Assembly (NCBI GenBank): GCA_964513625.1
Contig: CAZENH010000001.1
Location: 241,642 to 305,641 of the forward strand
From: an uncultured Myxococcales bacterium
GTDB taxonomy: Bacteria > Myxococcota > B64-G9
Direction of reading: 5' to 3'
DNA: 64,000 nt
Part shown: piece by piece, positions 23,935-62,716 of the stretch
Position numbering within the stretch: the stretch's first letter is position 1
Layout of the letters: the number at the start of each line of letters is the position of its first letter
Notes under the pieces: model-generated
Database searches by the model: none
Told to the model about the DNA's origin: nothing
What the model saw: the letters and a program-made list of their open reading frames with translations, nothing else
Translations under genes and position numbers: made by a program

Positions 23935-24894
23935 ATGAAAAACATGGAACTGGCCGTGACCTATCGCTGTAACCAGAAGTGCGAGATGTGCTCGGCAACG
24001 ACTTTGGCGCGCAAACACGCCCGGGTTCTATCCGTGGATGAAATCGTGGATCTGGTCGATCAATGCAAGCTTCTGGGCCTCGTGCATGTCGACCTGACTG
24101 GGGGAGAACCCTTGCTCAGGCCATGGGACGAGCTGGTAACCATTGTAGAGGGGCTTTCGAGGAACAAAGACATTATCGTGGCCATGGCAACGAACGGCCT
24201 GCTGGTAAACGCTGACAGGCTTGCAAGATTACGGCAGGCCGGCCTGACACAGATTCTTTTCAACATACAAAGCGCGGATGCCGACAACCACGATCAAATC
24301 GTGGGCGTGAGCGGAAGTTTTTCAAGAGCTGTTTCCGGAGTCGTGCAAGCCAAGAAATTGGGGTACAGCGTTTGTATCAATACGGTCATCGGCAGGCACA
24401 ATTTCGATGACATAGTCCGGCTGGGTGAAAAGTGCAAGACATGGGGTGCTTTTCTGGCCCTCAACCTGGCGGCCAGCGCCGGCGAATGGCGCACTGAACA
24501 CGAGCACAAGCTCACCGAAGATTGGTATGCCCGCTACAGCGCTCTGCTCAGGCAGCCACATGTCCGCTCTGACAACATAATCAACTTCAAGACGTTTGGT
24601 TGGGGCTGCCCCGGGGGAATCGAGAAAGTCTACGTCACAGAGTACGGCGAGGTTTTGCAGTGTCCTTTCGTCCAGGTTTCCTACGGGAATGTACGACAAG
24701 AACCGATAGATCGGATTTTCAGAAGAATGTCCAGCTCGCACTTCATCTCGAAGTATTCCGAGCGCTGCAAGCACGTCTTCTCAGAAGAGTTTCGAAAGGA
24801 ATGGCTGGACCCGTTGGATGACTTTCCTGTCTTGCCCATCAGGTACAACCAGCATCCATATTTGAAACGCAAGCCTGATTGCGAGGGCGAGTGA
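23935..24894 (+). CDS. radical SAM protein with a C-terminal SPASM/twitch-like Cys cluster
   Basis: VTYRCNQKCEMCS (CxxxCxxC). C-terminal GWGCPGG...QCPF. The track's 23581 start overlaps the convergent upstream gene, so I used the internal ATG 23935 (MKNMELAV). Confidence 0.7.
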   Translation: MKNMELAVTYRCNQKCEMCSATTLARKHARVLSVDEIVDLVDQCKLLGLVHVDLTGGEPLLRPWDELVTIVEGLSRNKDIIVAMATNGLLVNADRLARLRQAGLTQILFNIQSADADNHDQIVGVSGSFSRAVSGVVQAKKLGYSVCINTVIGRHNFDDIVRLGEKCKTWGAFLALNLAASAGEWRTEHEHKLTEDWYARYSALLRQPHVRSDNIINFKTFGWGCPGGIEKVYVTEYGEVLQCPFVQVSYGNVRQEPIDRIFRRMSSSHFISKYSERCKHVFSEEFRKEWLDPLDDFPVLPIRYNQHPYLKRKPDCEGE

Positions 24895-25757
24895 TGGAAA
24901 GCTCTGCCGGATGCCTGTTCGGTTGCGACGCTAAGGCCGTGTCTCTTGCAGGAAGTGGAGCAGCGGCTCACTACCTTTGCTGTCAGAAATGCGGGTTGGT
25001 ATTTGAAGCGCATCCGGCATCGACTGAGGAGATAGAAAAGCAGTACCGTGACGATCTGAGTTCACCGAGCAAATACTATACAAGGAGCACGGACGAGGAC
25101 CGGACTACGTTTCGACGCAGGTTGCGACTGTTGACCGCTTTCAGGCCCAAGCGCGGCAGGTTGCTCGATATCGGATGCAGCGTGGGCACCTTGATGGACG
25201 AAGCACGGCGCCTGGGTTGGGAAGCCACTGGAGTCGAACCCAATCCACTGGCGGCTGGTATTGCCCGTCGATTGAATCTGCCGGTGATCGAGGAATTCTT
25301 CGGACCGGGCGTAGTTGAGAAGATCGGTGGTGACTTTGACTGTGTAGTGTTAAATGATGTTCTGGAACATCTTCGCGATCCTGCCCGGACGCTGAGACTA
25401 GTGCACAGCGTTCTCGTTCCAGGCGGCCTGGTAATGGCCAGCACACCAAACATGCAAAGTATATTATGCCGCACCTTCCAGATGAAACCAGGTGAGCACC
25501 TTTTCCTTTTCAATGATGGCAATTTCAGGAGCATCTTCGAACGCATGGGTTTCACGATTTGTTGTCTTGCGAGCACTTCGAGAAGGCGAGCACTTTCGCA
25601 TCTCGAATTGTCGACTACAAGGCTGCCAGCCTTCCTGAAGGCCGTACTCACTGTATTGGGTCGCCTCCGGCTTGACAGACCACTGTCCTGGCTTATGGAA
25701 GAACTTCTTCGCGACGAACTACTGATAATCGCACGTAAAACCAAGCGGTTAGAGTAA
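24894..25757 (+). CDS. class I SAM-dependent methyltransferase with an N-terminal Cys4 zinc ribbon
   Basis: LLDIGCSVGTLMDEA (motif I), VLNDVLEHLRDP, and CLFGC...CCQKCG. TGATG overlaps the upstream stop. Confidence 0.7.
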   Translation: MESSAGCLFGCDAKAVSLAGSGAAAHYLCCQKCGLVFEAHPASTEEIEKQYRDDLSSPSKYYTRSTDEDRTTFRRRLRLLTAFRPKRGRLLDIGCSVGTLMDEARRLGWEATGVEPNPLAAGIARRLNLPVIEEFFGPGVVEKIGGDFDCVVLNDVLEHLRDPARTLRLVHSVLVPGGLVMASTPNMQSILCRTFQMKPGEHLFLFNDGNFRSIFERMGFTICCLASTSRRRALSHLELSTTRLPAFLKAVLTVLGRLRLDRPLSWLMEELLRDELLIIARKTKRLE

Positions 25758-27122
25758 ACGTCTGAGCTTGTTTAGTGTTTTTTCGGGGTGACCGGAAAAA
25801 AACAGGTGGCGGGCAATGGTTCGAAGCCGTTTCGACGACAAGTAGAAGTTCAGGTACGCCTCTCGTCTCAACTTGTTGAGTTGCTCGGGCGCAATGGCCG
25901 CATCTTTGCTGTAGACTGGTTTTCCGTAATAGTCGAAATCGACGATGCCTGGACGAATCAATCCCTGGGTTTTTTCGTACAGAATTGTTCCTGGCAACGG
26001 GGTGGTGATGGAAAAGGTCGCATCGTCGAGGGCTAACTCACGGGCCAGGCGGATGGTCTGTCTGATTTCGTCAGCACTTTCTCCCGGGGCTCCCAGCATG
26101 AAGTAGCCCTGAATCGAGAGTTCGAACTGCTTGGCCAGGTTCACGGCGCGTCGGATCTGCTGATGGCTAATGTGCTTGTTGTATACATCATTCAGGATGC
26201 GAGCGGAGGCCGATTCGATGCCGATGTTGATCTTGCGCAGTCCGCATCGCCGCAGTTCCGCAATGAGCTTTTCATCGAGCGTGTCTGCCCTGGCATTGCA
26301 GGCCCAGATGACCTCCGGCCGAGCCTGATGAATGGCCCGGCCGGTGGCCCGGGCCCAGTCTGCATCGATAGTGAAAGTATCATCCTGGATCATGAAGCCG
26401 CGGATTGAGAAATCACTCGCAAGTTTGGAAATCTCATCGGCTATACCCGCCGGCGATCGCTTTCTGACCGTCGAGCCGAAGAGTTTACGCAGTGTCGGCT
26501 GGCAATAGCTGCAGTTGAACGAGCAGCCGCGCGAAGCGATAATCGACGTTCCGGGATTGGCACCTGGCACAGAGTCCATCTGAAACCAGTTGCGCAGGTA
26601 GGCCCGCATCGGGAGAAGGTGCCAGGCAGGCAACGGCAGCCTGTCGAGATCCTCGATTGGTTTGCGAGGGGTGGTTCTTATCAATTTGCCTGCGCGCATG
26701 AAAGCGATACCGGCGATGTGTTCGAGGTTCCCCGGCTGACTGACGATTTCCGGCAGGGTAGTATCAGCTTCTCCGATACAAACCGCGTCGGCTCCAGTTT
26801 GTCGCAACGCCATTTCTGGTACAACCGTGGGATGTGGACCGCCAAGAATCACTTGGGTACCTGAACAGATGCTTCGGGCCATGTCGGTCACTTGCGCGGA
26901 AGTGCTCAGCATTGACGCCATGACCGAGATGCCTACCAGGTCATAGCGCTTTTTCCTGAAAGCATCGAGCAGGTAGCCAAATGGATTGGATTCAAAAGTA
27001 GTATCGAGGATATCAACCTGTACACCCTGGATACGCTCCAACTGGGCGGCCAGCAGCGCGACTCCCAGTGGAGGATCTCCCGAGCGATAGATCATGCGCG
27101 GAAATACCAGCGCGACTTTCAT
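25749..27122 (-). CDS. B12-binding (class B) radical SAM protein
   Basis: N-terminal B12-binding-like MKVALVFPRM...DILDT. SRGCSFNCSYCQPT. ATGA overlap with the upstream GT2. Confidence 0.8.
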   Translation of the reverse strand: MKVALVFPRMIYRSGDPPLGVALLAAQLERIQGVQVDILDTTFESNPFGYLLDAFRKKRYDLVGISVMASMLSTSAQVTDMARSICSGTQVILGGPHPTVVPEMALRQTGADAVCIGEADTTLPEIVSQPGNLEHIAGIAFMRAGKLIRTTPRKPIEDLDRLPLPAWHLLPMRAYLRNWFQMDSVPGANPGTSIIASRGCSFNCSYCQPTLRKLFGSTVRKRSPAGIADEISKLASDFSIRGFMIQDDTFTIDADWARATGRAIHQARPEVIWACNARADTLDEKLIAELRRCGLRKINIGIESASARILNDVYNKHISHQQIRRAVNLAKQFELSIQGYFMLGAPGESADEIRQTIRLARELALDDATFSITTPLPGTILYEKTQGLIRPGIVDFDYYGKPVYSKDAAIAPEQLNKLRREAYLNFYLSSKRLRTIARHLFFSGHPEKTLNKLRRLL

Positions 27123-27898
27123 GCTTGCCGATCCCCGTCGTATATCCCCTGGCGATCACGCCGGCGGATCTCCAGCAGGCCCCAAAACATCTTGAGCGAG
27201 TCTCGCAGAGTGTTCAGCTTGCTGTCCGGATCGTTGGTCCAGACGACCGGGACCTCGGCGATTCTGAAGCCCAGCCTGCGGGCTATAAACAACGTCTCGA
27301 CGTCGAAGACGAATCCGTCGGCCTGCACCTTGGTGAAGATTTCTTCGGCAGCCTTGGCGCGGAAACACTTGAAGCCGCACTGAGTGTCTTTTATGCCGCC
27401 AATGACAAGTGCCCGGCGCAACGGTCGAAACACCATCCCGGCGGCGTAGCGCAGGTTGGTTTGGCGGCGGGTGACGATCGAGTCTCTGAGTGCCCGCGAG
27501 CCAATCACGATGTCGGAACCGGCCGCGAAATGGGCCCAGAACTTGTCTATTTCCTCGATAGCGGTCGATGAATCGGCATCCATGAAAAGCCTGAAGTCGC
27601 CTCGCGCTGCTAGCATACCGCTACGTACCGCGAAACCCTTGCCTCGGTTGGTGTCCAGACGTAAAACACGGCCTACCGGGGGTGCTTGCAAAGTCCTTGC
27701 GTTTTGCAGGAACCAGCGTTCAGCCCAGCGGGCCGTGCGATCGCGGCTGCCGTCGTCAACGACCAGGATCTCATAGGCGTAGTCCTTATTCGACAGGTGT
27801 TCATGGATCTTCTGCAAAGTGCTCAAAATGAGCATCTCCTCGTCGAAGGCCGGTACAACGACCGAGAGCAGATCGGGTTTTTCTTTCCTGGCAATCAT
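27119..27898 (-). CDS. GT2 polyprenyl-phosphate sugar synthase (DPM1/ArnC/GtrB-like), soluble, ~259 aa
   Basis: LSVVVPAFDEE, ILVVDDGSRDRT, FMDADSS, QCGFKCF. Confidence 0.75.
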   Translation of the reverse strand: MIARKEKPDLLSVVVPAFDEEMLILSTLQKIHEHLSNKDYAYEILVVDDGSRDRTARWAERWFLQNARTLQAPPVGRVLRLDTNRGKGFAVRSGMLAARGDFRLFMDADSSTAIEEIDKFWAHFAAGSDIVIGSRALRDSIVTRRQTNLRYAAGMVFRPLRRALVIGGIKDTQCGFKCFRAKAAEEIFTKVQADGFVFDVETLFIARRLGFRIAEVPVVWTNDPDSKLNTLRDSLKMFWGLLEIRRRDRQGIYDGDRQA

Positions 27899-27909
27899 CC
27901 TGGTGCATC

Positions 27910-28029: not shown

Positions 28030-29679
28030 TTGGCTCAATTGCAACGCGTTTGCATCTTTCAATGGTCTTGGAGGGCAGCCAGATTGGTCGAGATCATCGT
28101 CGATCGTAAGCGGGCGGTGCACGAGAAGAGACGCTGGGTCAGGCTGACCCGCACCTGTAACAACCACTGCCTCTTCTGTCTCGATTCCGGAATTGTCGGC
28201 GAGAAAATACGGGCAGTCGACGAGATCCGCGCCGAGATCGACGAGGGACGCAGAGATGGTTGCGAACGCCTGATTTTGTCCGGTGGAGAACCCACGCTGC
28301 ACCCGGATTACCTGGATCTGGTTGCCTATGGCGCCGGGCTGGGTTACAGCTGGGTGCAGACAGTGTCCAATGGCCGCATGTTTTCATATTCTTCGTTTGC
28401 CGCTCGCGCAGTCAAATCAGGGCTTTGTGAAGCCACTTTCTCCATGCATGGACACGAAGCGAAACTGCACGACCGCCTAGTGGGAGTAAAAGGTGCTTTC
28501 GATCAAGCCATCAAGGGAATGGACAACCTCAGGAATCTCGGGATCGTTGTCAACGTCGATATTGTTCTGACCGGCCTGAATGCTGAGCAACTACCAGAAA
28601 TAGTCGAGTATTTCATGCAATCCGGGGTGCGCGAATTCGACTTGCTGTGGATGGTGCCTTTCGGCTCGGCCTGGCGGAACAGGCACGAACTGTTTCTGGA
28701 ACCGGAATCGGCCTTGCCGCGCTTACATGAAGCCATACGGCGTGCCAGGGCCGCCGGCGCCGTGGTCTGGACGAATCGCCTGCCGCCGCCGTTGCTGGAA
28801 GGACACGAGGATCTCATACAGGATCCCCACAAGCTTCACGATGAAGTTCGCGGTCGGTTGCCCGAATACATGGAATTGATCTCGAGCGGGGAGCCCTTGA
28901 GATGCAATCAACCCGAGAGGTGCCGTCAGTGTCCCATGGAGGGGTTCTGCCGGTCCCTCGAGAGCCTATTGTGCGAGACTGCCGAAGGCGGGCCGACTTC
29001 ACTAAGCGTCAATGCTGACTGCCAGATTGAATCCGGGATGAAAAAACTACTTGCCGGTTCCTCACGACTGCGAATCCACGCCCGGGATCAAAAAAGACTC
29101 GCTGAATTCATCGGATCCCTGGAATTGGACGGACAAGCTCTCATACTGGTTCTCGATTTCATACCGGATAGCGATGGGCTGGATTTCATTGCTGGATTGG
29201 GAGAAAATGTAGTCAGGATGGCCTCCGGTGTTCCAGATGTGTTGGAGGCGATACTGGCCGGGTGGCCGGGTGAAGTCGAGGTCATGCTGAACCGGGCGAC
29301 TGAAGACTGGGTTGCCGAGAGAATAGATTTTATTTGCTTACAGACAGATCGCTTGCTGTTTTCTGCGGAACCCATTGCAACTAATCCTGCTGAAGCTCTA
29401 AGGCCACTTGCAAGATACGGCATACGCTTACTGAATCTTCCGCGATGCCTCCTTGCCGGTGCAGTGTCAGTTGACGAGACCGAGCCTGTGGCTGTCGAGG
29501 CTGTAATGGGGCTTGCCGCGGGAGAGTTGGCAGCCTTCACCGAACATTACATCAGTCATTGCCACAGGACATACTCTTTGCGGTGCAAAAACTGTCAGTG
29601 GTGTGCGTCATGTAAGGGTCTACCCGTGAATATGATTCGCGCCCATGGTTTTGACGCTCTGTGTCATCCATCCACCTGA
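28030..29679 (+). CDS. radical SAM protein with C-terminal Cys-rich segments
   Basis: RLTRTCNNHCLFCLDSG. C-terminal CNQPERCRQCPMEGFC and CKNCQWCASC. The start could instead be TTG 28084, which is preceded by GGAGGG. Confidence 0.7.
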   Translation: MAQLQRVCIFQWSWRAARLVEIIVDRKRAVHEKRRWVRLTRTCNNHCLFCLDSGIVGEKIRAVDEIRAEIDEGRRDGCERLILSGGEPTLHPDYLDLVAYGAGLGYSWVQTVSNGRMFSYSSFAARAVKSGLCEATFSMHGHEAKLHDRLVGVKGAFDQAIKGMDNLRNLGIVVNVDIVLTGLNAEQLPEIVEYFMQSGVREFDLLWMVPFGSAWRNRHELFLEPESALPRLHEAIRRARAAGAVVWTNRLPPPLLEGHEDLIQDPHKLHDEVRGRLPEYMELISSGEPLRCNQPERCRQCPMEGFCRSLESLLCETAEGGPTSLSVNADCQIESGMKKLLAGSSRLRIHARDQKRLAEFIGSLELDGQALILVLDFIPDSDGLDFIAGLGENVVRMASGVPDVLEAILAGWPGEVEVMLNRATEDWVAERIDFICLQTDRLLFSAEPIATNPAEALRPLARYGIRLLNLPRCLLAGAVSVDETEPVAVEAVMGLAAGELAAFTEHYISHCHRTYSLRCKNCQWCASCKGLPVNMIRAHGFDALCHPST

Positions 29680-29718: not shown

Positions 29719-32700
29719 GTGCTAGAATTGCTGAAACAAGGTCAGGAGCAAAAATTCATGAAAGCCAAGAATGTCACGCTGGTTTTAGCCGGAGTTCTTG
29801 TTCTTGGGTCGTTTGTGGGATGCTCCAGCGATACTACTCCCCCCGACGACGGGAGCATCTTGTGCTCGGAGGACAATGATTGTCCCTACGGAACGTTTTG
29901 TTCGGACGGAGTCTGCCGGACGACTTCGGTGCCATGCGACGAGGCTGATTCGTGCCCCCCAGGCTCGGTTTGCCGTAACGGTGCTTGTGTGGTGGAGGGG
30001 ACCGATGGAGGAATAGACGGCGACGGGGGAGATGGTGGCGAAGGCGAACAGTCGCCCAAGCCTGATATAGTAGTGCTGAGCCCTCCGCTAAGCGGAGATC
30101 CTCCAGTATACCAGGTTAACTTCGGCAACGTCCTGGTAGGGGAGACGGTTGGCAAGCAGATCGAACTCAGCAACGACGGTGACGCCGATCTGCAGATCAT
30201 CCAACTCAACTTCGAGGCGGGATCAGACGCCGATGATTTCAGTATTGATGAGGACCAGCTGAACTCACTGCCGATCGTGGTACCGCCCGGCGAAAGCACG
30301 ATCCTCGATGTGCTCTATACGGCAACGGATGGGCTTACCGATCATGCCGTTTTGGATATCATTTCCAACGACCCGGACGAGCCGTTAGTACAGATCCACC
30401 TGCTTTCTGAATTCAAGGGCGAGGCCTTCGCGTCGGTCAATCCGACCTCGTTGGAGTTTGGTGATATTCCCGTCGGGGACAGCAGCCAGCCGCTTTCTTT
30501 CCTGGTCTCGAACCAAGGAACGGGCAACGCCGTCCTGCAGGTTGAGGACATACGATTCGGCATAATGTCCAACCCCGATTTCGATTTGCAGGTTACGGAT
30601 GCCGCAAGTCAAGGGGTTGTGCCGCCGGTCTTCGTCAACAACGGAGAATTCTTACAAGTTGATGTCACCTATCACCCGCAACTTCGTGAAGACGATGCAG
30701 ACGAGGTTATCGTGGTGAGCGACGATGTTGTCCATCCATCGCTTTCTGTGGCGATTGCGGGCCGCGGAGTGCTGGGAGACCTGAATGTCCAGCCCAGTCC
30801 GGTAGACGTCGGCAAGGTACGCGTAGGCCAACATGGCGAGCTGATCGTGACGCTGTCCAATTCGGGAGGTGCGCCTTTTTCGATTAGCGGCGTCAATATT
30901 GCAGACGTAAGTCAGGAATGGACTCTTTCGAGCAGCGATCTCGATCTGGCCGACCTGGGAAACAATCCCAAACAACTGGCGCCCGCCGAGTCGGTGACGG
31001 TATTGCTGGGCTTCGACCCGGAAGACGTCGGACAAGAGCTTGGCACTCTGGTGATAGATAACACGACCGAAGAGCCTCAGCGCCAGGTCGCCATGCAGGC
31101 AAACGGCTTCATCCCGCCCTCCGTCCAGACGACACCCGATCCGGCCGTGCTGCTGTTCGGTAACGTCCAGATGGATTTTGGCAGTGGCGCGAAGGAGATC
31201 GCTCAACTGGACGTGCTAATCAAGAACGTGGGAGGGGAAGACCTCATCATCTCCAATATCCAGCGTGCAGGAACCACCAGCCCTGAGTACACGTTCGAGC
31301 CGGACCAATTCGGGTCGATTGCACCCGACGTCGAGTTGCCCTTGCGAGTGACTTTCACGCCGATGGATCTTGGCTCGGAGAACGGCGCCTTGATACTCGA
31401 TACGAATGATCCCGATATCGAACTGGATGGCGTGACCGGGCGCTTCAAGATTGACTTGTTGGCTAACGGCATCGATCCAAACATTTTCGTGTCTCCCGCG
31501 GCGGCCTATAATTTCGGCGATGTGTACGTCGGTCGACAGGCTTTGAAAGATATTTCCATTCGCAACGCGGGAACGGGGCCACTCGAGGTGACGGCCATAG
31601 ATCTTACCGCGGGTAGCTCACCGGACTTCGAGCTCTTCAACCTGCCCGCGCTGCCGATGGTGCTTTCGAACACATCGATAGAGGTCATCTTTCAGGTCGG
31701 CTACACGCCCGACCTATTGGGGCCGGACAGCGGCGCCATCCAGATCGAGTCTTCGGACATCGGTCGTCCCGACGGTGTGACAATCGACCTGGCGGGCAAC
31801 GGTGCCGGTTGCCCGGCCGGGGCCATCGACTGCGACGGCGACCCGCAGAACGGCTGTGAGCGCCCTTGTGTACCGAGCGGCGTCGAACAGTGCAACTACA
31901 TAGACGACGACTGCGACTGCGACACAGACGAAGATTTCGACACGCAAAACGATCCCCAGAACTGCGGCAACTGCGGGAACGTCTGTAGCTATCCCTATGG
32001 AGTGCCGGCCTGCAACGGCGGTAGTTGCGAACTGCTGCATTGCCTCGATGGTTACGATGACTGCAACGGATTCGACCTGGACGGCTGCGAAAAAAATACC
32101 GACACTGACGTGCAAAACTGCGGATCATGCGATAACGCCTGCCAGTTCGACCATGCGGGTGCAAGTTGCCTGGCCGGGACCTGCGTCATGGGTAGTTGTA
32201 ATACAGGTTATCTAGACTGCAACTCGAGCGACGTGGACGGCTGCGAGGCTGACATATTCTTTGATGAGTTGAACTGCAGCGGGTGCGGTGTCCGATGCAC
32301 TTTTGCCAACGGCAACGGTATTTGTTCAGGAGGTAACTGTTTCCTGGATTCGTGCATAGCCGGCTATGATGACTGTGACAACCAGGACGGCAACGGCTGC
32401 GAGGTAGACTTGTTGACCGATCCCAACAACTGCAGCTTCTGTAACAATGTTTGCCCGGGAAGCGTGGGGACGCCCGTATGTAACAATGGCAGCTGTGATG
32501 TTTCTTCATGCAATCCCGGGCTGGCGGAGTGTATATCGGGAGACGGCCAGCCTTGCGAGACGAACATCTGGGCCGATCCAAACAATTGCAACGGCTGCGA
32601 CATAGTCTGCTCTCTGGATCACGCTACGGCAGACTGCTCGAATGGAAGCTGCATTGTGGACACGTGCGATTCGGGTTATGGCGATTGCGACAGCCTGGAC

Positions 32701-33457: not shown

Positions 33458-33883
33458 ATGGACACGAGAATAGAGGCCGTAAAAAATCGCGTTTTATGTG
33501 AAATTGACGAGAAGGTTTTCCCCCGCGGGGTTGTGGTCAGCACCGCCTACCTGTTTTTAGAACGCTGCTACGTGCGTCTTGAGTCGGCGCCCAAGGGACG
33601 CATAGTCGTCCAATTAAAGGGCAAACGTAAGACAGCCAAGGCACGGCTGCAGACCCTGGCTGATGAGTTCGGCAACGAGTTGATGCACCAGTTGATGCGC
33701 GACCAAGTCGCCGAGAAAACCAACGGGTTGCGGGAAATCCTGGTTGGGCGGGCGCTGCTTTCGGCCGTGCCGGCAGGGGAAGAGGGTTCTTTAGCTGAAT
33801 CCGAGGAAGAGCAGGATTACCTCGACGATCCCCTGGGGATCGCCGTTCCCTGGGAAGAGAAATATGGCGACGAAGAACAATAG
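33458..33883 (+). CDS. small HxsD-like protein, paralog 1 (141 aa from ATG 33458), with an acidic C-terminal tail
   Basis: It aligns to the next ORF: FPRGVV...VRLESAPKGRIVVQL...TAKA...LADEFGNEL against YPRQAL...IEFSKEGSKTIVNF...VAAKVPDEFTNFAL. SD-supported start. The track's 33416 start adds 14 unlikely residues. Confidence 0.4.
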   Translation: MDTRIEAVKNRVLCEIDEKVFPRGVVVSTAYLFLERCYVRLESAPKGRIVVQLKGKRKTAKARLQTLADEFGNELMHQLMRDQVAEKTNGLREILVGRALLSAVPAGEEGSLAESEEEQDYLDDPLGIAVPWEEKYGDEEQ

Positions 33884-54835: not shown

Positions 54836-54964
54836 CTGCCCCTGCTTCGATGTTGTGGACGCATGTAATGTACTTTGACATCCATACTCTAGTCATGGCA
54901 AGCACCTTGCAATTAAATCAATTTTGACCAAGATTACCAGACATCGGTTGTCTAACATGCGGCT

Positions 54965-56471: not shown

Positions 56472-56501
56472 TTGACAGTCGGCGCGTGTGCCCGATATTA
56501 T
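56472..56501 (+). promoter_or_regulatory. candidate promoter TTGACA-18-TATTAT upstream of the gmhA-like gene
   Basis: Read directly. A GGAGG SD at 56516-56520 precedes GTG 56531. Confidence 0.3.
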
Positions 56502-56530
56502 CCATAATCAAAACCCGGAGGATTTCTGAA

Positions 56531-57133
56531 GTGATAGAGCAGTTTGCAAGTGATTTCCTAGCTCGGATAAGCAATGCGCTGGCCGAGGTTCAACTAGCTG
56601 ATATCAACGACATCGTTCAGACGATTATTCGGGCTTTTCGGGACGGAAACGCGGTTTATATCATGGGTAACGGCGGGAGTTCCGCGACCGCGTCTCACCT
56701 GGCCTGCGATCTTTGCTATGCCGAATGCAGGACAAACAGTTTTAGCGTGGCATGCCTGAGCGACAATGTGCCACTGCTCACGGCCCTAGGAAACGATCTT
56801 GGATATTACGATGTATTCAGTGGCCAACTAGATCGACTGCTCGGTGCCGGTGATGTCGTGATCGTTCTTTCTGTTTCGGGAGATTCGGAGAATATTCTGA
56901 GAGCGGCGACAACCGCGCGCAAACACGGCGCAGCGTCTATCGGCTTTCTGGGGTCGAACGGCGGGAGGGCACGAGCATTGCTCGACCACAGCATAGTGCT
57001 GACAAGTGCAGATTTCCCGGTTGTGGAAAGTGTGCACTGTGTGCTGATGCAAATGGTGGCAAACGTGTTCCGACGTTGCATCGTGGATAGGCCCGATTAT
57101 TTTCCCGGCGGCGATCTCGATGCTCAAAATTGA
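56531..57133 (+). CDS. gmhA: SIS-domain sedoheptulose-7-phosphate isomerase-like (GmhA-like)
   Basis: VYIMGNGGSSATASHLACDL and GDVVIVLSVSGDSENILRAA are SIS signatures. I chose GTG 56531 (SD 9 nt upstream) over the track's 56486 start, which would run through the promoter. Confidence 0.7.
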   Translation: MIEQFASDFLARISNALAEVQLADINDIVQTIIRAFRDGNAVYIMGNGGSSATASHLACDLCYAECRTNSFSVACLSDNVPLLTALGNDLGYYDVFSGQLDRLLGAGDVVIVLSVSGDSENILRAATTARKHGAASIGFLGSNGGRARALLDHSIVLTSADFPVVESVHCVLMQMVANVFRRCIVDRPDYFPGGDLDAQN

Positions 57134-57149: not shown

Positions 57150-58820
57150 GTGCCGGTGGTCCTGGGACTCCACGCTTTCGGTCATGAGGCCGGAGCTTGC
57201 CTGGTGGCGCCCGATGGACTCCGGGCGCTAAGCGAGGAACGCCTGAGCCGCGTCAAGTATGACGGTGCATTTCCGAAAAAAGCCATTGAATGGGTGCTTG
57301 AGGCGTCTGGAGTAGGCGATCTCGAAAAAGTAGACCTAGTAGTCTATGATTTGCTCGAGCGAGCAGGTCCCAGGGTTATAGAGAATTTGAGGCAACTGGG
57401 ATACCTGGGAGAGATAAGGGCTCTTCGACACCACGAGGCTCACGCCGCCTCTGCTTTTTTTGTAAGCCCGTTTGAAGAAGCCACGGTGTTTACTATTGAT
57501 GCCGGCGGAACTCGCGAGGGCGAGGAGGGGCCCGGAGTTCAACCTTCAGCCCGACAACTGGATCACCCGATGCGACGCGAGGTTCAGGCCGTCTTCTACG
57601 GTCAGGGGCACGATATACGGACGCTAAGACGAACTGTCGTGGCTCCTCCGTGGACAATAAACCCCGGCGTTTTCTATGGACTTGCCTCTGAGTTTCTGGG
57701 TTTCGGTCAGATGGGAGCTGGAAAAGTCATGGGCTTATCCGCCTTCGGCGGAAAGGACGTTCATTTCAGAAAACCGTTTTTCGAAGATATCGCTGAAGAT
57801 CCTCTGGCACGCTGTCCCACGAAAGACCCTCTCCAGGAGTCCGTACTGCATTCATATCTTCCCACTGTTTTCGGCGGAACACCGCCGAGGAAAAGGCACG
57901 AACAAATCGACGCCCGGTACCGGGACATCGCAGCTTACGTTCAGGCCGAATGTCAGCGGGCAGTTGTTTCTTTTCTTCGAAATCTGGCATCTTCTGCGCC
58001 TTCTACAAATCTTTGCATGGCCGGAGGATTCGCACTTAATGCCATCAGCAATACAGCGATTCTCGGACAAACGCCGTTTAAGAGTCTTTTCGTCCAACCG
58101 GCGGCAACCGACGCCGGGATCCCACTCGGCTGTGCCCTGTGGGGTTACCATGTCGTTCTGGGACAGGAACGCCGATTCGAAATGCGTACCGCCGATCTTG
58201 GGGGCGCATATACGATCCACGAGATCCAGAGAGCCATCGGCGAGCGTTCTGGAATAATCGTCAGGCGCATCGATGCCATTGAGCACAAGGCGGCCGAGGA
58301 ACTGGCTGCAGGAAAAATCATCGGCTGGTTGCAGGGGCGCAGCGAGTTTGGACCCAGAGCGCTCGGCCACCGCAGCATTTTCGCCGATCCGCGCAATGTT
58401 CGATCAGTGTCCAGGCTCAATGAAGAGATAAAATTCCGGGAATCGTTCCGGCCCTACGCACCGATGGTATTGGAGGAGGCGGCAAAGAAATACTTTGATC
58501 TTCCGGAAAGCAGTCCATTTATGTTGCTGATTGCCCCGGTTAGGCAGGAGTGGCGCTCGAAGCTTCCCGCTGTCACCCATGTGGACGGGACGGCCCGGAT
58601 TCAAACAGTCTCCGAGGGAGACGAACCCGGGCTGTTCAGATTGCTGAAAGAGTTCGAACGACAATCCGGATGCCCCGTGCTGCTGAATACGAGTTTCAAC
58701 CGGGCAGGGGAACCCATCATCGAGAGCCCAACCGATGCCTTGGACGTTTTCCTGGCAACGGATTTGGAAGCGTTGGTTATGGAGGACTTTTGGATAGAAA
58801 AAGAGCACGTATACGAATAG
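57150..58820 (+). CDS. NodU/CmcH-family O-carbamoyltransferase
   Basis: N-terminal VVLGLHAFGHEAGACLVAPDG (ASKHA/Carbam_trans_N-like). C-terminal domain with PVLLNTSFNRAGEPI. ~556 aa. GAGGTGA SD. Confidence 0.8.
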   Translation: MPVVLGLHAFGHEAGACLVAPDGLRALSEERLSRVKYDGAFPKKAIEWVLEASGVGDLEKVDLVVYDLLERAGPRVIENLRQLGYLGEIRALRHHEAHAASAFFVSPFEEATVFTIDAGGTREGEEGPGVQPSARQLDHPMRREVQAVFYGQGHDIRTLRRTVVAPPWTINPGVFYGLASEFLGFGQMGAGKVMGLSAFGGKDVHFRKPFFEDIAEDPLARCPTKDPLQESVLHSYLPTVFGGTPPRKRHEQIDARYRDIAAYVQAECQRAVVSFLRNLASSAPSTNLCMAGGFALNAISNTAILGQTPFKSLFVQPAATDAGIPLGCALWGYHVVLGQERRFEMRTADLGGAYTIHEIQRAIGERSGIIVRRIDAIEHKAAEELAAGKIIGWLQGRSEFGPRALGHRSIFADPRNVRSVSRLNEEIKFRESFRPYAPMVLEEAAKKYFDLPESSPFMLLIAPVRQEWRSKLPAVTHVDGTARIQTVSEGDEPGLFRLLKEFERQSGCPVLLNTSFNRAGEPIIESPTDALDVFLATDLEALVMEDFWIEKEHVYE

Positions 58821-58827
58821 AATTGCG

Positions 58828-59958
58828 TTGTTTGGCTATTGGGAGAGTTGCAGCATGCGTGTTCTGTTAGTCGGAGGCATACCCATGCGGCTCCATCGGG
58901 GGCCGGTAGACTGGGCTGGACACCACTTCGAGGCTATCAGGCACGTTTTTGATCGCATCGTAGTTATGGAGCACATGGAAGCATGCGAAAGGGTCACGCT
59001 GGATCAGAAGGCTCTGAGTGACTTTGTCGAATCCACTCGCGACTACGATGCCGTATTTTGCGAGACGCCAGAAGCCTTACTGCTATTTCAGGAATGGAAG
59101 AAACGGGGTGATTCTCCCATTGCACTGCTCGCCCTGGAGGTACACGGGCTTACACGGGTGGCGGCAATGCGCGAGTGGTATCTCGAACACGAAGGCCATG
59201 ACCCCTGGCCGGGGATGGCTCGAGCTCCCTGGATCGCCTGGATAGCGGCCAGTTCGGTCCAGGGCGATATCCTGCTTAAAGCCGGAGTACCCCCTGAGAG
59301 CATCAGGCGTATCAATGCGGGCACTATTGCATATTCCACCTTCTTGCCGAATGCAGATGCCTTACTCGACGGTGGCACACAAGTGGACGGAGAAGCTGCG
59401 TTCGGATTACCGGCTGATGGGGTTGTCGTGCCTGGATCGGGTCGGCGTGACCGGGAGTGTAGCCTCAAGGCTGCCAGGGCGTTGCCCGGTCTTCCCTTCG
59501 CGATCGTTGACGAACAGGCAGCCGGTCAACGCCGGCGTCTGGCCGGGACCGGGCTGCTTGAACTTCCCAACGTGCGCTGGCTGAAGGCACTTGCGCTGGA
59601 GAGATATATCGCTCTGATCAAGCGTGCCAGACTGGTGGTCGTGGCTCTACAACCCGGCACCGGTGACGGCGGGCACACGACCGTCGCGTTGGCCCACAGG
59701 CTGGGAGCGACTGTTATTTGCAGCGATGTGCCGGGAATCGCAGATTATGTTGAAGATGGATACAACGCAAGGCTCGTGAAGGCTGCAGATCCCGACAGTT
59801 TGGCCGAAGCGATAAGTAATTTATGGAAGGATAGCGATGAGCGCAACCGCCTCGCACAAAACGGACGCCTTACCGAGGTTGCGCGCGCCCGGGAGTGCCA
59901 GCACGAATTCTTGCAAACACTGGAATCAGTGGCGGCGGTTCTAAGAAAGGAATTTTAG
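58828..59958 (+). CDS. GT4-like glycosyltransferase (low similarity). Probable start at MRVLLVGG, 58855.
   Basis: GT-B-like C-terminal half (...GATVICSDVPGIADYVEDGYNARLV...ERNRLAQNGR...). Confidence 0.45.
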   Translation: MFGYWESCSMRVLLVGGIPMRLHRGPVDWAGHHFEAIRHVFDRIVVMEHMEACERVTLDQKALSDFVESTRDYDAVFCETPEALLLFQEWKKRGDSPIALLALEVHGLTRVAAMREWYLEHEGHDPWPGMARAPWIAWIAASSVQGDILLKAGVPPESIRRINAGTIAYSTFLPNADALLDGGTQVDGEAAFGLPADGVVVPGSGRRDRECSLKAARALPGLPFAIVDEQAAGQRRRLAGTGLLELPNVRWLKALALERYIALIKRARLVVVALQPGTGDGGHTTVALAHRLGATVICSDVPGIADYVEDGYNARLVKAADPDSLAEAISNLWKDSDERNRLAQNGRLTEVARARECQHEFLQTLESVAAVLRKEF

Positions 59959-61385
59959 TTGTGGAGCTACTTGTTCTCACGCCCCCCGATTTTATTTTCA
60001 GAAAAGCAGACGAGGTTACGCCCACTTATAGTGAAGAACGCAACATTCCCTACGGTGCACTGACTTTAGTGAGCTTTCTAAGAGAGCATGGAATTCGGGC
60101 CATGGTGGCTCCCCTGCGGGAGTTCTATCAGGAGACTGGTTGTTTCACGCATTTTGATGAAGGTACGCCTGAATCGAGGAAAGTCTTCGAGCAAAAGACT
60201 TCGCAGATCCTGGGCAACTTGCTGCGTCGCTTGCATCCTGGGGCAATAGGTTTGTCGGTAAACTTTGCCATTCACCAATTGGCTGCGGAAATCATTATCG
60301 ATCAGATCCGTGCACTGGCTCCAAATCTACCGGTGATCATCGGTGGAAATCATGCAACCCACACAGCAGAACACTGGCTGACACGTGAGAACCCGGTGGA
60401 TTTTGTTGTCCTCGGTGAAGGTGAGCAGACTTGTCTGAAACTGCTTCAGTCGGAATTCAAGCCGGGCGATCTTTCCGGATTAGCCAGGCGACGTGATGAT
60501 GGAAGCGTAGAAATAGGTGAACGACCGAAACGCCTCACTGTGGCGCAAATCTCGGTGCCGCTGAACCTTGAACTCGTCGCTTTACCGCGCTGGGCTCCTC
60601 TGAGCAGTCAGAAACACTGGGTTGGACTTAGTCGGGGATGTAACTGGAACTGTGCCTTTTGCACTAGTCATTCGATGTGGGGCCGGCAGCGTTACCGAAA
60701 ACCGGAAGCTGTTGCCTCCGAGATCGATCGCGTCGTTACAGCGGGTGCAAAACGAATCATTTTCAGCGACGACATGCTCAACCCGGGTTCACGCAGGTTC
60801 CAGGGTCTGCTTGAGGTGCTGCAGGGTTTTCGCGATTGCAGCTTCTCCACCATGATCCGCATGGACCTGTTGGAACGCACAGACCTCAAGGCGCTTGCTG
60901 GAGCCAATATTGATTACGTATACCTCGGTGTGGAGAGTTTCTCCGTGCCGGTACTTGAAGCGATGAACAAGAAGGCCCGCCTTGTCGATAAGAGTGCCGT
61001 CGAATCACTGATGAAGAGAATCAAGGCTGCTGGCATGAAGACAATCATGTTCATGTTGATCGGCCACCCGGGCAGCAACTTCGAGCAGGACATGAACTCA
61101 GCCCGCTTTTGCCGCAAGCTGGTCGACCTGGGCTTGGTATCCGTGGTGTTTCCTGCCCACATCGCTCCTTTTCCGGGCACGGCGATAGCGGCCATGGAGC
61201 AGAAAGGAGCCTTCAGAGTAGTCGAAACACGGATGAATCGCTGGACTCTCTGGCGTCCGAATATCGAGCTTCTGGATTCGTCCGGTCGAGTGAATTATTC
61301 GGCCGAGGAAATGCAGACAGTCTTCGATGAGTATCTCGATTGCTGGTACGAACATGGGCTCGGAAATTCCGGTGTAACAGGGTAG
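59895..61385 (+). CDS. B12-binding radical SAM protein, paralog of 54965..56419
   Basis: LVLTPPDF...ERNIPYGALTL...MVAPLREFYQ. SRGCNWNCAFCTS. The likely real start is GTG 59961, just after the upstream TAG. Confidence 0.8.
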   Translation: MPARILANTGISGGGSKKGILVVELLVLTPPDFIFRKADEVTPTYSEERNIPYGALTLVSFLREHGIRAMVAPLREFYQETGCFTHFDEGTPESRKVFEQKTSQILGNLLRRLHPGAIGLSVNFAIHQLAAEIIIDQIRALAPNLPVIIGGNHATHTAEHWLTRENPVDFVVLGEGEQTCLKLLQSEFKPGDLSGLARRRDDGSVEIGERPKRLTVAQISVPLNLELVALPRWAPLSSQKHWVGLSRGCNWNCAFCTSHSMWGRQRYRKPEAVASEIDRVVTAGAKRIIFSDDMLNPGSRRFQGLLEVLQGFRDCSFSTMIRMDLLERTDLKALAGANIDYVYLGVESFSVPVLEAMNKKARLVDKSAVESLMKRIKAAGMKTIMFMLIGHPGSNFEQDMNSARFCRKLVDLGLVSVVFPAHIAPFPGTAIAAMEQKGAFRVVETRMNRWTLWRPNIELLDSSGRVNYSAEEMQTVFDEYLDCWYEHGLGNSGVTG

Positions 61386-61405
61386 CCTGAACTCAAGTCT
61401 AATCA

Positions 61406-62716
61406 ATGATTGCTAGAAGCCAACTGCAAAACGATTTGGAACCTATTCTACTGGAGTCGGGCCTGCCCCCGGCGGGAGTCGAAATCCTGATCAATTTGGC
61501 CCTTGGCTCGGCCCGCATGGAAGATCTCAAAAACAATGCCAAGTTGCTGCCGTCGGAAGATCTGGGTGAATACGTTTCGATGCTGGAAAAAAGAAAATTG
61601 ATCAGTTCAAGCGTGGACGACGATGGACGGTTTAAGCTGGTCGAATCAGAAGAGCTGTTCGCAAGACTGCCGGGTCCGGCCGGGGCTCGACTTGTGTTGT
61701 TGGCCACCCAGGCACAGCGAGAGTTCGTTGGAGGCATGACGATCAACCCGGCCATGCCGATAGGTGACACACGACTCTTGAGTCCTTTCGAAGCATACAG
61801 AAATACACTTGATGCTCGCCTGCCGCAGGTGGAAATCAAGGTACAGACTTCGTGCAATATCGGCTGCCTCTATTGCTTCATCCGCAAAGATCCAAGAGAT
61901 ACGCTCGACACGGTAGTGGCTCGGACCGGGATAGAACGCGCCAGAAGCGGAGGCGTCGAGCGTCTGATCCTGACAGGGGGCGAACCAACGTTGCGCAAGG
62001 ACTTGCCAGAACTAATACGGCATGCCCGCGAACGTGGTTTCGTAGATGTGCAGTTGTTTACAAATGGTCTGATTTTTGCGTACGCCGATCGGCTGGACGC
62101 CTGCATACGGGCCGGACTGACTTCAGTGGTTCTGCATGTATCTTCCGTCGACCGGAATATATATGCTCGTCTGACGGGCAGAGACCACCTGGAGACGGTC
62201 AAGCAAGCGATGCACAACCTGGCTCGCTACCCGCAACTCGAGATGGCGATAGTAACAGTCATTAACCGTCTCAACATACATAACTTGGCAGAGACCATCG
62301 ATTTCTTCCGGGACTGGCAGGAAAAAACCCACTTTGCATGGTTTGCCAATGAGATTCCATTTTGCTGCGTGTATTCCCGTGCCTGGGATAACAGGGACAA
62401 GGTTCTCATGCCGATAGAACAAGCATTGGGAGTCCTTGAAGCAATTGTTAGAGAGCACGACGGCGAGACATGGCCCTTGCTATTTTATGGAATTCCATAT
62501 TGTCTGTTGCCGGGGCTGGAGAGCAATAGTTATGATCTCTACTTCACCATGGCTCGTCAGTTACTACCCGAAAAAAACTTTGACTACACTTTTCTAGATG
62601 CCATGTTTCTCAAGTCTGATAAATGTCGAAGGTGCAGGCACGAACCGTATTGCCTGGGGATCTCGCGCGGTTACGCTCGTCTGTACGGCAGCGATATCTT
62701 ACAGCCCGTCATTTGA
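61406..62716 (+). CDS. radical SAM protein with a ~140-aa N-terminal non-catalytic domain and a C-terminal Cys-rich tail
   Basis: QTSCNIGCLYCFI. C-terminal CCVYSRAW...CLLPG...KCRRCRHEPYC. Confidence 0.7.
   Translation: MIARSQLQNDLEPILLESGLPPAGVEILINLALGSARMEDLKNNAKLLPSEDLGEYVSMLEKRKLISSSVDDDGRFKLVESEELFARLPGPAGARLVLLATQAQREFVGGMTINPAMPIGDTRLLSPFEAYRNTLDARLPQVEIKVQTSCNIGCLYCFIRKDPRDTLDTVVARTGIERARSGGVERLILTGGEPTLRKDLPELIRHARERGFVDVQLFTNGLIFAYADRLDACIRAGLTSVVLHVSSVDRNIYARLTGRDHLETVKQAMHNLARYPQLEMAIVTVINRLNIHNLAETIDFFRDWQEKTHFAWFANEIPFCCVYSRAWDNRDKVLMPIEQALGVLEAIVREHDGETWPLLFYGIPYCLLPGLESNSYDLYFTMARQLLPEKNFDYTFLDAMFLKSDKCRRCRHEPYCLGISRGYARLYGSDILQPVI

Follow-up and report, generated by a model that had tools for sequence, protein, structure and literature searches.

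The 64,000-nucleotide stretch of DNA described here, hereafter the window (contig CAZENH010000001.1 of an uncultured Myxococcales bacterium), carries about 42 genes. Thirty-two of these belong to one cluster, which begins at 21720 with the gene of a predicted glycosyltransferase (GT) of the GT-C fold, continues beyond position 64000 and spans at least 42 kb. Fifteen of the 32 genes code for radical S-adenosylmethionine (rSAM) enzymes, and to our knowledge there is no denser radical-SAM cluster. Four genes, those for HxsD, an HxsD-like small protein, the maturase HxsB and the precursor peptide HxsA4, score over the cut-offs of their NCBIfam families, and by sequence the Hxs (His-Xaa-Ser) system is the organising element of the cluster. 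Our preferred reading, to which we give a probability of about 0.55, is that of one conserved supercluster with two layers: an expanded Hxs-type maturation of a (SHG)18 peptide exported by twin-arginine translocation (Tat), and a glycosylation route of GT-C and polyprenyl-phosphate type supplied with sugars tailored by rSAM enzymes.

In HxsA4 a leader motif that is conserved among relatives precedes a Tat-like signal (LTRRDLLS and a hydrophobic stretch), and a region of the form HCSHG(SHG)n...SW follows. The tandem array at 37340-37501 consists of 18 copies of a 9-bp unit encoding (Ser-His-Gly)18. Its DNA is only 79% identical at period 9 and shows synonymous variation, so the repeat is kept by selection on the protein, and recent slippage as its origin was rejected. 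Pfam finds no peptidoglycan-binding domain in HxsA4, and its sole match is Gly-X-Y Collagen (30.4 bits, gathering cut-off 27.2); there are also weak matches to the collagen-like adhesins Lcl and Scl. The collagen match is probably compositional, and the core may form a collagen-like or polyproline II-type rod. With a leader and a repeated core, and encoded beside maturases, the SHG precursor fits by its sequence the type of the peptides made by ribosomes and altered after translation (RiPPs).

The closest characterised system is the HXS of E. coli, an antiphage system of four genes in the order D-B-C-A (Li et al., Nat Commun 2026, PMC13128918). There HxsB, HxsC and HxsD mature HxsA in the cytoplasm by N-terminal processing and by an addition of 8 Da (+C/-4H) on the SHRSS motif, the change sitting on an S-H-x-S motif; HxsC binds HxsD, and mature HxsA is periplasmic, anchored by a peptidoglycan-binding domain, and blocks the entry of phage DNA (PMC13128918). 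The chemistry of the +8 Da change is unsolved; the authors could not reconstitute the modification (PMC13128918). Pseudomonadota account for 99.7% of the described HXS systems, and the number of genes is exactly four in more than 99.8%; the Hxs families had first been defined bioinformatically and received a first functional assignment only in 2026 (PMC13128918).

The gene order of the window, D-D'-B-rSAM-A (D' being the HxsD-like gene), matches the canonical order. The rSAM gene at 35615-37054 occupies the positional slot of HxsC; by its scores the product is not a member of the HxsC family, and counterparts occur only in relatives of about 82% identity (L005, L006 and L085; L numbers refer to the related loci compared). 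Three other proteins are HxsC-like with about 100-114 bits, under the cut-off: the product of 28030, the N-terminal half of that of 37512 and the C-terminal half of that of 40458. The preliminary description of this DNA, made from the letters alone, did not recognise the combination of genes as any characterised pathway. This does not wholly hold, since four proteins pass the Hxs cut-offs and the core has its characterised relative in the four E. coli genes. As to the expanded myxobacterial cluster, the searchable literature yielded no description of it, and NCBIfam already models the precursor subtype.

Radical SAM enzymes of the cluster

Sixteen CxxxCxxC motifs were read from the translations of 15 open reading frames (ORFs) between 23.6 and 62.7 kb, two of them in 40458-42707. 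When the residues of the 32 cluster proteins are shuffled 2000 times, such motifs number 0.4 on average and never more than 3, and the motif is absent from the 13 genes upstream of the cluster, although two of those encode more than 100 cysteines. All 15 proteins score above the gathering score of PF04055 (Radical_SAM), at 50.6-114.8 bits (cut-off 29.5), and two separate stretches of the fusion at 40458-42707 match the family. The 15 rSAM proteins and 16 domains counted in the preliminary description are thus borne out, and its concern that some CxxxCxxC proteins might be other iron-sulphur proteins is answered by the hidden Markov models. The start of the first rSAM gene, given there as 23935, has to be corrected: the ORF of rSAM_A is open from 23581, with candidate starts at 23806 (TTG) and 23824 (ATG), and since its orthologues are 362-364 amino acids (aa) long the start probably lies at 23806-23824.

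A B12-binding domain (PF02310) is present in seven proteins, those starting at 25749, 46196, 50165, 51709, 53276, 54965 and 59895. Eight cobalamin-type domains had been claimed; seven are firm, and the eighth, most likely the N-terminal half of the fusion at 40458, is assigned by homology. This half aligns over residues 27-445 with the B12-type rSAM of 46196-47590 and matches NCBIfam models of B12-type rSAMs. Pfam gives no PF02310 match for it even at an E value of 0.01, and its nearest solved relative in the PDB search, with a weak score, is AprD4, an enzyme that binds no cobalamin (PMC12931638). From these comparisons the count would be seven cobalamin-type domains plus one that is B12-rSAM-like. 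The C-terminal half of the same fusion is HxsC4/BlsE-like (HxsC4 101.7 vs 500 in NCBIfam).

B12rSAM_3, B12rSAM_4 and B12rSAM_5 are tandem paralogues with 38-40% identity to one another, and B12rSAM_6 and B12rSAM_7 are 55% identical. Members of the B12rSAM_1 family with 43-50% identity are found in Armatimonadota, Fibrobacterota, DPANN archaea and Methanobacterium. At L087/L088 (7963-11368) a B12rSAM_1-type gene directly follows that of a 664-aa protein with multiple transmembrane (TM) segments and no Pfam match, possibly another lipid-linked-sugar transferase.

The nearest solved structures are QCMT (PDB 9CCB) for 25749, 46196 and 59895, AprD4 for 53276, BlsE for the C-terminal half of the fusion at 40458 and for 43494, and GDGT-MAS for 61406, all with weak scores. 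QCMT is a protein glutamine C-methylase, and AprD4 belongs neither to the methylases nor to the cobalamin enzymes (PMC12931638). Homology of this kind gives no firm assignment for the rSAMs of the cluster, and the heavy C-methylation named in the preliminary description is a mere possibility. Apart from HxsB, no rSAM of the window attains any NCBIfam equivalog cut-off. The names BchE (anaerobic Mg-protoporphyrin cyclase), HpnJ and ladderane lipid rSAM found in source annotations were rejected, the scores being 3-5 fold under the equivalog cut-offs (at best 144.5 vs 481 for BchE, 168.5 vs 578 for HpnJ and 112.3 vs 360 for rSAM_ladder_B12). The unassigned N- or C-terminal parts of the proteins of 28030, 35615, 40458, 43494 and 61406, among them the C-terminal half of the first and the N-terminal 225-aa domain of 43494, have no Pfam match.

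Tight packing and interleaving of the rSAM genes with others had been described and are confirmed. Of the sequence from 21720 to 63949, 98% is coding, with seven 4-bp overlaps and no gap larger than 143 bp. The interleaved genes encode two GT2 and two GT1/GT4 enzymes, a nucleotidyltransferase, a GDP-mannose-dehydratase-like (GMD-like) dehydratase, a short-chain dehydrogenase/reductase (SDR), a SIS-domain isomerase, a carbamoyltransferase, a class I methyltransferase and the rSAM-methyltransferase fusion (Table 1).

As the sequence comes from metagenome assemblies, the density of the cluster might be thought to be an artefact due to misassembly, to pseudogenised paralogues or to iron-sulphur proteins other than rSAMs. 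We give this next to no weight. The same sequence was recovered on a contig of an independent Logan assembly and relatives of about 82% identity are collinear with the window, so the gene arrangement is no assembly artefact. None of the ORFs is broken and each exceeds the Pfam gathering score, and the paralogues are only 38-55% identical, therefore old duplications and not assembly repeats.

Table 1. Genes of the cluster, with positions in the window and the matches or orthologues on which the names rest; scores in bits, followed by the model cut-off where given.
Product	Position	Strand	Evidence and remarks
GT-C fold glycosyltransferase (PMT_2/GT39-like), 678 aa	21720..23756	-	about 9 TM segments and periplasmic domains
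rSAM_A	23806..24894	+	CNQKCEMC; PF04055 90.5; best NCBIfam AhbD-like 110.8 vs 500
Class I SAM-dependent methyltransferase	24879..25757	+	PF13489 87.7; 48% orthologue in L099 block
B12rSAM_1	25749..27122	-	PF02310 80.3, PF04055 76; nearest PDB 9CCB
GT2_a, polyprenyl-phosphate-sugar-synthase-like	27119..27898	-	PF00535 95.4; best NCBIfam AglJ, ArnC-like, dolichyl-P-hexose transferase, all under cut-off
HxsC-like rSAM 1	28030..29679	+	CNNHCLFC; PF04055; HxsC 111 vs 267.9; HxsC4 103.8 vs 500
Cys-rich lipoprotein, 1218 aa, Ig-like (ASH/HYDIN) domains	29719..33375	+	Pfam; lipobox; 72 Cys
HxsD	33458..33883	+	TIGR03976 56 vs 50
HxsD-like small protein	33864..34112	+	NF038315 54.6 vs 41
HxsB, rSAM/SPASM maturase	34109..35590	+	TIGR03978 519.7 vs 370, full length 1-466
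rSAM in HxsC positional slot	35615..37054	+	PF04055 68.7; HxsC4 45.8 vs 500
HxsA4 precursor, 132 aa	37109..37507	+	NF038313 101.4 vs 55
HxsC-like rSAM fused to class I methyltransferase, 599 aa	37512..39311	-	PF04055, PF13489; HxsC 113.5 vs 267.9
Secreted Cys-rich protein	39316..40314	-	signal peptide; no family match; positional orthologues weak (21-23%) in L002, L003, L014, 54-61% in L005/L006
Double rSAM fusion	40458..42707	+	CPYGCVFC and CNNHCIFC; PF04055 in two stretches, 114.8
Sugar-1-phosphate nucleotidyltransferase	42760..43497	+	PF00483; NCBIfam matches under cut-offs; 47% orthologue upstream of rSAM_SPASM in L003
rSAM/SPASM enzyme (rSAM_SPASM)	43494..45098	+	PF04055, PF13186; nearest PDB BlsE; orthologues 51-63% in L003 and L086
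GT1_a, GT1/GT4-type, 357 aa	45095..46168	+	weak PF13692, PF00534; 51% orthologue in L003
B12rSAM_2	46220..47590 (start 46196 in the preliminary description)	+	PF02310, PF04055; Sden_1168-type 170.7 vs 575; nearest PDB QCMT
SDR epimerase/reductase	47587..48447	-	PF01370 128.8; 51% orthologue in L002
NDP-sugar 4,6-dehydratase, GMD-like	48455..49441	-	PF16363 236.7; gmd 137 vs 415; 75% orthologue in L002
GT2_b, polyprenyl-phosphate-sugar-synthase-like	49438..50181	-	PF00535; dolichyl-P-hexose transferase-like, ArnC-like under cut-off
B12rSAM_3, first of three tandem paralogues	50165..51712	-	PF02310, PF04055
B12rSAM_4	51709..53265	-	PF02310, PF04055
B12rSAM_5	53276..54835	-	PF02310, PF04055; nearest PDB AprD4
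B12rSAM_6	54965..56419	+	PF02310, PF04055; 43-46% orthologues flank fusion gene in L003
SIS-domain isomerase, GmhA-like	56486..57133	+	PF13580; gmhA 97.9 vs 209; 37% orthologue beside precursor in L002
NodU/CmcH-type carbamoyltransferase	57150..58820	+	PF16861 237.6, PF02543; weaker homologues near fusion gene in L027, L036, L038
GT1_b, GT1/GT4-type	58828..59958	+	PF00534; 62% orthologue in L006
B12rSAM_7	59895..61385	+	PF02310, PF04055; nearest PDB QCMT
rSAM_B	61406..62716	+	PF04055 76; orthologues 55% in L019, 57% in L006
Nucleotidyltransferase-GmhB-like HAD phosphatase fusion (NTP-GmhB)	62699..64000	-	Pfam; HAD-IIIA TIGR01656 114.2 vs 84; cut by window end, full gene 443 aa, to about 64030 (L101)

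Glycosylation genes

The first cluster gene (21720-23756) lies outside the coordinates of the preliminary description. The window copy has no Pfam or NCBIfam match, PF13231 included, and PDB sequence searches with the single sequence and with a profile found nothing. Of its 15 orthologues ten match PF13231 (PMT_2; best E value 7.5e-11), and some are named GT39 by their sources. An AlphaFold model (pLDDT, the predicted local distance difference test, 82.5) compared with the PDB by Foldseek gave GT-C enzymes as all of the top 27 matches (E values down to 4e-6, probabilities 0.97-1.00), including ALG9, ArnT, PglB/STT3, AglB, Pmt4, Emb, DPY19 and AftA. From the orthologue matches and the modelled fold the product is predicted to be a GT-C enzyme. 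In L099 the gene and the five that follow it have stayed together, at 55% identity.

Orthologues of GT2_a (63-64%) adjoin B12rSAM_1 in L086 and L099. On L101, which is the same contig continued, positions 2751-5869 take in NTP-GmhB and its neighbours: beyond NTP-GmhB lie a third ArnC-like GT2 (34% identity to 49438-50181) and then a multi-TM protein of at least 307 aa. In the ArnC/ArnT and Ppm1/Pmt systems a sugar is loaded onto polyprenyl phosphate and a GT-C enzyme then transfers it to a periplasmic acceptor. The window resembles these systems in its short soluble GT2s and its GT-C enzyme with PMT_2 orthologues, and this pairing suggests a route for periplasmic glycosylation; it differs in that the donor sugar is apparently tailored by rSAMs and that there is no flippase among the window genes. 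The Pfam results for all 42 window genes contain no Wzx, Wzy, ABC exporter or initiating phosphoglycosyltransferase, and a canonical polysaccharide locus was rejected, as flippase, polymerase, exporter and initiating transferase are missing from the window.

Pathways of GDP-heptose modification for capsule and lipopolysaccharide (LPS), as in Campylobacter jejuni and Yersinia pseudotuberculosis, use GmhA, HddA, GmhB and HddC with a GMD-like dehydratase and reductase. The GmhA-like SIS protein, the NTP-GmhB fusion, the GMD-like 4,6-dehydratase and the SDR of the window are reminiscent of them. They differ by scores below equivalog level (the GmhB models give NTP-GmhB 127.8 vs 178 and 91.2 vs 149.6) and by the absence from the window of a heptose kinase and of capsule or LPS export genes; the full gene set of the GDP-D-glycero-D-manno-heptose pathway is not present in the window.

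A set of nucleotidyltransferases, a dehydratase, an SDR, a carbamoyltransferase and GT4 enzymes, together with AprD4-like, BlsE-like and B12-type rSAMs, also resembles the tailoring genes of aminoglycosides and nucleosides. The product could then be a small molecule other than a peptide, a heavily alkylated sugar of aminoglycoside-like or nucleoside-like kind, the SHG peptide being a bystander, a carrier or a resistance element. We consider this improbable: Pfam finds in the window neither an aminotransferase or cyclitol synthase nor an exporter or resistance gene, the GT-C enzyme and the polyprenyl-phosphate-type GT2s point to an envelope-linked product, and it is the genes of the peptide system, not the sugar genes, that accompany the fusion rSAM most consistently.

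Related loci in Myxococcota

The comparison set comprised about 90 related loci, and neighbourhoods were scored within 10 kb of the double-rSAM fusion gene. About 84 full-length homologues of the fusion are present in the protein collection, and 337 stretches were confirmed by tblastn in GTDB species-representative genomes; the best 80 of these 337 come almost all from metagenome-assembled genomes (MAGs) of Myxococcota, plus Polyangium sp. 15x6. This cultured Polyangium (L055) has no Hxs genes within 10 kb of its fusion gene, and the Archangium loci are from MAGs. A fusion rSAM of 39% identity was also seen in a MAG labelled 'uncultured Enterobacteriaceae bacterium' (L034, CAYURO010000009.1), the other matches all being from Myxococcota; the label is likely a taxonomic mislabel or the result of a binning error.

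The neighbour counts come from best-hit assignment in 46 loci, each at least 20 kb long with the fusion at its centre. Near the fusion gene HxsB is found in 24 of the 46 loci, HxsD in 23, the rSAM-methyltransferase fusion in 22, an HxsC-like rSAM of the 28030 type in 21 and an rSAM_B-like gene in 19. HxsB is directly followed by the precursor in L003, L008 and L014, and the rSAM-methyltransferase fusion adjoins the precursor in L002, L003, L005, L006, L008 and L014. Twenty precursors were found in related loci; all end in ...HCSHG(SHG)nSW and have the leader motif in common, with n from 7 to at least 59. L032 (16080-17471, minus strand) carries two tandem precursor genes with 35 and at least 59 SHG repeats, and the repeat number varies from 16 to 18 even among loci of about 82% identity. 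Up to 10 Cx3Cx2C ORFs per 22 kb occur in the related loci.

There is thus a core layer, composed of the ...HCSHG(SHG)nSW precursor, HxsB, HxsD, HxsC-like rSAMs, the rSAM-methyltransferase fusion and the double-rSAM fusion, which is widespread in Myxococcota. Because the core rSAMs accompany the peptide where sugar genes are absent, the peptide is most likely their substrate. Judged by gene content, the multi-rSAM Hxs-type peptide system is a general feature of Myxococcota, and the window its most expanded form among the compared loci.

Whether the window holds one super-cluster or two to three adjacent clusters had been left open in the preliminary description, together with the question of whether the genes are dispersed in unrelated contexts elsewhere. 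The synteny comparison across Myxococcota finds them associated and favours one super-cluster, since genes that are 15-35 kb apart in the window are neighbours in rearranged relatives. In L002 (59% identity of the fusion) the GMD-like dehydratase (75%), the SDR (51%), NTP-GmhB, the GmhA-like gene and a GT2 adjoin the precursor and the rSAM-methyltransferase fusion, whereas in the window the same sugar genes lie 10-25 kb from the precursor. L003/L019 (47%) carry, in this order, the Ig-like lipoprotein, HxsD, HxsD-like, HxsB, precursor, rSAM-methyltransferase fusion, an unknown gene, deacetylase, GT2, B12-rSAM, double fusion, B12-rSAMs, nucleotidyltransferase, rSAM/SPASM, rSAM_B and GT4. The orthologue of rSAM_B (61406) directly follows that of rSAM_SPASM (43494) in L003, L019 and L006, and the two are 16 kb apart in the window. 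In L086 (57%) the orthologues of 28030, 27119 and 25749 lie at most 10 kb from the 43494 orthologue (63%), a GT2 and NTP-GmhB, and in L089 a carbamoyltransferase orthologue of 57% stands among three or four B12-type and two HxsC-like rSAMs. The left block 28030-27119-25749-24879-23806-21720 is intact in L099 (55-65%).

The precursors of the related loci are of two types, one with the leader only (56 to more than 238 aa, no signal) and one in which a Tat-like RR motif and a hydrophobic segment come behind the leader motif common to both. Within 10 kb of the fusion, seven of eight Tat-type loci have sugar or GT genes, and none of 11 leader-only loci does (Fisher p = 1.6e-4, uncorrected for phylogeny; the value overstates independence, since the Tat-type loci are one clade and include near-duplicates). 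The figures for stand-alone B12-type rSAMs are the same, 7/8 and 0/11, and one leader-only locus has a carbamoyltransferase homologue without sugar or GT genes. An accessory package of stand-alone B12-rSAMs, sugar-nucleotide enzymes, GT2/GT4 enzymes, carbamoyltransferase and GT-C is thus found only with the Tat-type precursor. Such a pattern would arise if the B12-type enzymes had been gained together with export and glycosylation, as a single functional unit that acts on the exported peptide or around it. Since the stand-alone B12-type rSAMs co-vary with sugar genes, they may act on the sugar or on a glycopeptide.

The same loci bear on the view that two or three functionally separate systems lie side by side, an Hxs-type module (about 28-43 kb) and, at 21.7-28 and 43-65 kb, one or two pathways that make a glycan or glycolipid of the envelope. 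The B12-type and other rSAMs of these pathways would modify a lipid-linked sugar, and the GT-C enzyme would move this sugar to lipid A, peptidoglycan or other proteins and not to HxsA4. Most Myxococcota Hxs-type loci have no sugar genes within 10 kb, and the pairing of GT2 and GT-C is the ArnC/ArnT logic of lipid A modification. Against separate systems stand the modules that rejoin after rearrangement in L002, L003, L006, L086 and L089, the heptose-type genes that abut the precursor gene in L002, the tracking of sugar genes and B12-rSAMs with the Tat-type precursor, and the dense coding without gaps over the proposed boundaries. We regard adjacent systems as the main rival explanation, less likely than the single supercluster.

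Several observations weigh against a single supercluster acting on the peptide, the first three of which also speak for adjacent systems. L006 appears to lack the block at 47.6-58.8 kb, between the B12rSAM_2 and GT1_b orthologues, which would make this block dispensable or mobile. Homologues of B12rSAM_1 occur without Hxs genes in other phyla (Armatimonadota, archaea and others), once beside the multi-TM protein. The link of any B12-type rSAM or GT to the peptide comes from gene context, and the nearest solved relatives, with their weak scores, are mixed: the peptide methylase QCMT on one side and, on the other, AprD4 and BlsE, which are enzymes of sugars or nucleosides and are nearest to several of the rSAMs. 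The Tat-type loci form one clade, in which L003/L019 and L005/L006 are near-duplicates, so that phylogeny confounds the co-variation, and the conservation of the left module in L085 and L099 is accompanied by that of housekeeping neighbours and is uninformative. A canonical HxsC is missing from the window (best scores 113.5 vs 267.9 for TIGR03977 and 103.8 vs 500 for HxsC4, NF038332), HxsA4 with its 132 aa and perfect (SHG)18 array is markedly unlike the E. coli HxsA, having Gly in place of basic residues at x and no peptidoglycan-binding anchor, and an Rfam scan of the whole window gave no matches at all, hence no cobalamin riboswitch. The heptose reading of the GmhA-like, GmhB-like and GMD-like genes is a weak lead only, with scores below the cut-offs and no kinase.

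Proposed pathway and known systems

The core genes are linked and belong to the families named, and the accessory genes are linked to the Tat-type precursor; for the supercluster the following chemistry and roles are proposed. Maturation of HxsA4 would take place in the cytoplasm, carried out by HxsB, with HxsD and the HxsD-like protein as its adaptors, and also by several HxsC-like rSAMs, including the methyltransferase fusion and the B12-rSAM-like fusion. By analogy with the E. coli HXS, the HxsB/HxsC-like enzymes may add one-carbon units and cross-links at the His and Ser of each repeat; an HxsC-like domain fused to a methyltransferase would fit the one-carbon addition, and HxsB may plausibly work like the SPASM rSAMs that cross-link His to C-beta on His-x-x motifs. 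The nucleotidyltransferases, the GmhA-like and GmhB-like proteins, the dehydratase, the SDR, the B12-rSAMs and other rSAMs, the carbamoyltransferase and the two GT4-type enzymes would build a deoxy, alkylated and carbamoylated sugar. The GT2s would load this sugar onto a lipid carrier, from which the GT-C enzyme would transfer it on the periplasmic side, the acceptor being either the peptide exported by Tat or a component of the envelope associated with it.

What results would be a polymer of the periplasm or envelope that is rich in His, cross-linked and glycosylated. By analogy with HXS it could act as a barrier to phage DNA entry; metal binding by its at least 18 His residues, or a structural role, are possible alternatives. 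An alkylated glyco-conjugate of the SHG peptide had already been suggested in the preliminary description. This agrees with the tracking of sugar and B12-rSAM genes with the Tat-type precursor and with the GT-C and GT2 route; that the peptide itself is the glycan acceptor we infer from the co-variation. As a tentative and more specific extension, the cluster might make a new ribosomal envelope polymer, in which (SHG)n repeats, with Gly at each third residue, are one-carbon-bridged by at least six core rSAM domains and, in the clade of the window, exported by Tat and decorated by GT-C with a lipid-linked sugar that up to seven B12-type rSAMs and the carbamoyltransferase have alkylated and carbamoylated, giving a rigid His-lined glycopeptide rod that serves as phage-DNA barrier or metal-binding matrix.

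With the E. coli HXS the window shares HxsB, HxsD, a precursor with HxS repeats and an export signal, and the D-B-(rSAM)-A order; a carbon is added to S-H-x-S there, and an HxsC-like rSAM is fused to a methyltransferase here. It differs in having no HxsC family member and 16 rSAM domains in place of 2, in a precursor shorter than the E. coli HxsA, which has at least 214 residues and 5 basic repeats (PMC13128918), in the added sugar, GT and carbamoyl genes, in forming part of a conserved cluster with 32 genes or more, and in its host, which is from Myxococcota and not Pseudomonadota. NCBIfam holds type 4 Hxs models, of which HxsA4 (NF038313) and HxsD-like (NF038315) are passed by window proteins and HxsC4 (NF038332, cut-off 500) is reached by none, the best being 28030-29679 (103.8) and the C-terminal half of the fusion (101.7). 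No publication describing this type 4 subtype was found in the searchable literature. A PADLOC scan of 10 core proteins gave generic viperin-like similarity of the rSAM core and no membership of a defence system, with a library of 2023 that predates HXS.

Among other maturases, HaaB and HtkB are rSAM/SPASM enzymes which form cyclophanes of the triceptide type on His motifs, with cross-links from His-C2 to C-beta (PMC11499958). HxsB is likewise a SPASM-type rSAM with a short repeated aromatic-x-x motif (H-G-S) as its presumed target; it is a separate family, and a cross-link in Hxs peptides is suggested by analogy only. TvgB is a B12-rSAM which acts repeatedly on one ribosomal peptide with TVGG repeats (PMC9062424). 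The B12-domain rSAMs of the window are similarly encoded beside a repeat-containing precursor; they differ in number, seven or eight, and in co-varying with sugar genes and not with the peptide core, so that their substrate may be a sugar. The same likeness and difference apply to PoyB and PoyC of the polytheonamides, B12-rSAMs which also act repeatedly on one ribosomal peptide.

The same HxS motif in a perfect 18-unit array, or in the at least 59 units of a relative, could ease the detection and dissection of HXS chemistry, for which the fusions of an HxsC-like domain with a methyltransferase and of a B12-like with an HxsC-like domain are informative. The cluster ties RiPP-type maturation to a GT-C/polyprenyl-phosphate route and to a set of B12-domain rSAMs that are as yet uncharacterised. 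Should the glycan indeed be attached to the peptide, the product would represent a ribosomal glyco-conjugate of a new type, and several enzyme activities would be new. Should the system serve in defence, Myxococcota would join the range of HXS-type immunity.

Some further features were noted in and around the cluster. The Ig-like lipoprotein (29719-33375) also stands ahead of HxsD in L003 (48%) and L053 (31%), and it could act as partner of the system at the cell surface; L086 has a PKD/lectin protein in this slot. The cluster of L086 also includes a PemK-type toxin with a small upstream gene (10532-11169), probably a toxin-antitoxin pair. In two relatives of 57-59% identity a nitrogenase-like trio (Fer4_NifH and two Oxidored_nitro proteins) flanks the rSAM cluster (L002, 18232-22238; L086, 13263-16943); it was not seen in the window and may sit beyond 64000.

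With regard to regulation, a sigma-54 activator with a GAF domain is encoded at 13069-15087, upstream of the cluster, and the divergent intergenic region ahead of 54965 contains a promoter-like site close to the sigma-54 consensus (TGGCAAGCACCTTGC, 54896-54910). The genes are predicted to form eight blocks of alternating strand. A scan for such promoters (TGGCAC-N5-TTGC, 1 mismatch) gave 12 matches where 5.7 are expected, a number reached by 4 of 100 shuffles and not significant. Two large Cys-rich proteins are also encoded upstream: 7683-11576 gives a 1297-aa protein with 121 Cys and BNR/YCF48-like repeats, and 15157-18528 a 1123-aa protein with 107 Cys and 13 copies of PF11617, a MopE-type putative metal-binding motif. 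The latter is kept beside the cluster in L085 and L099.

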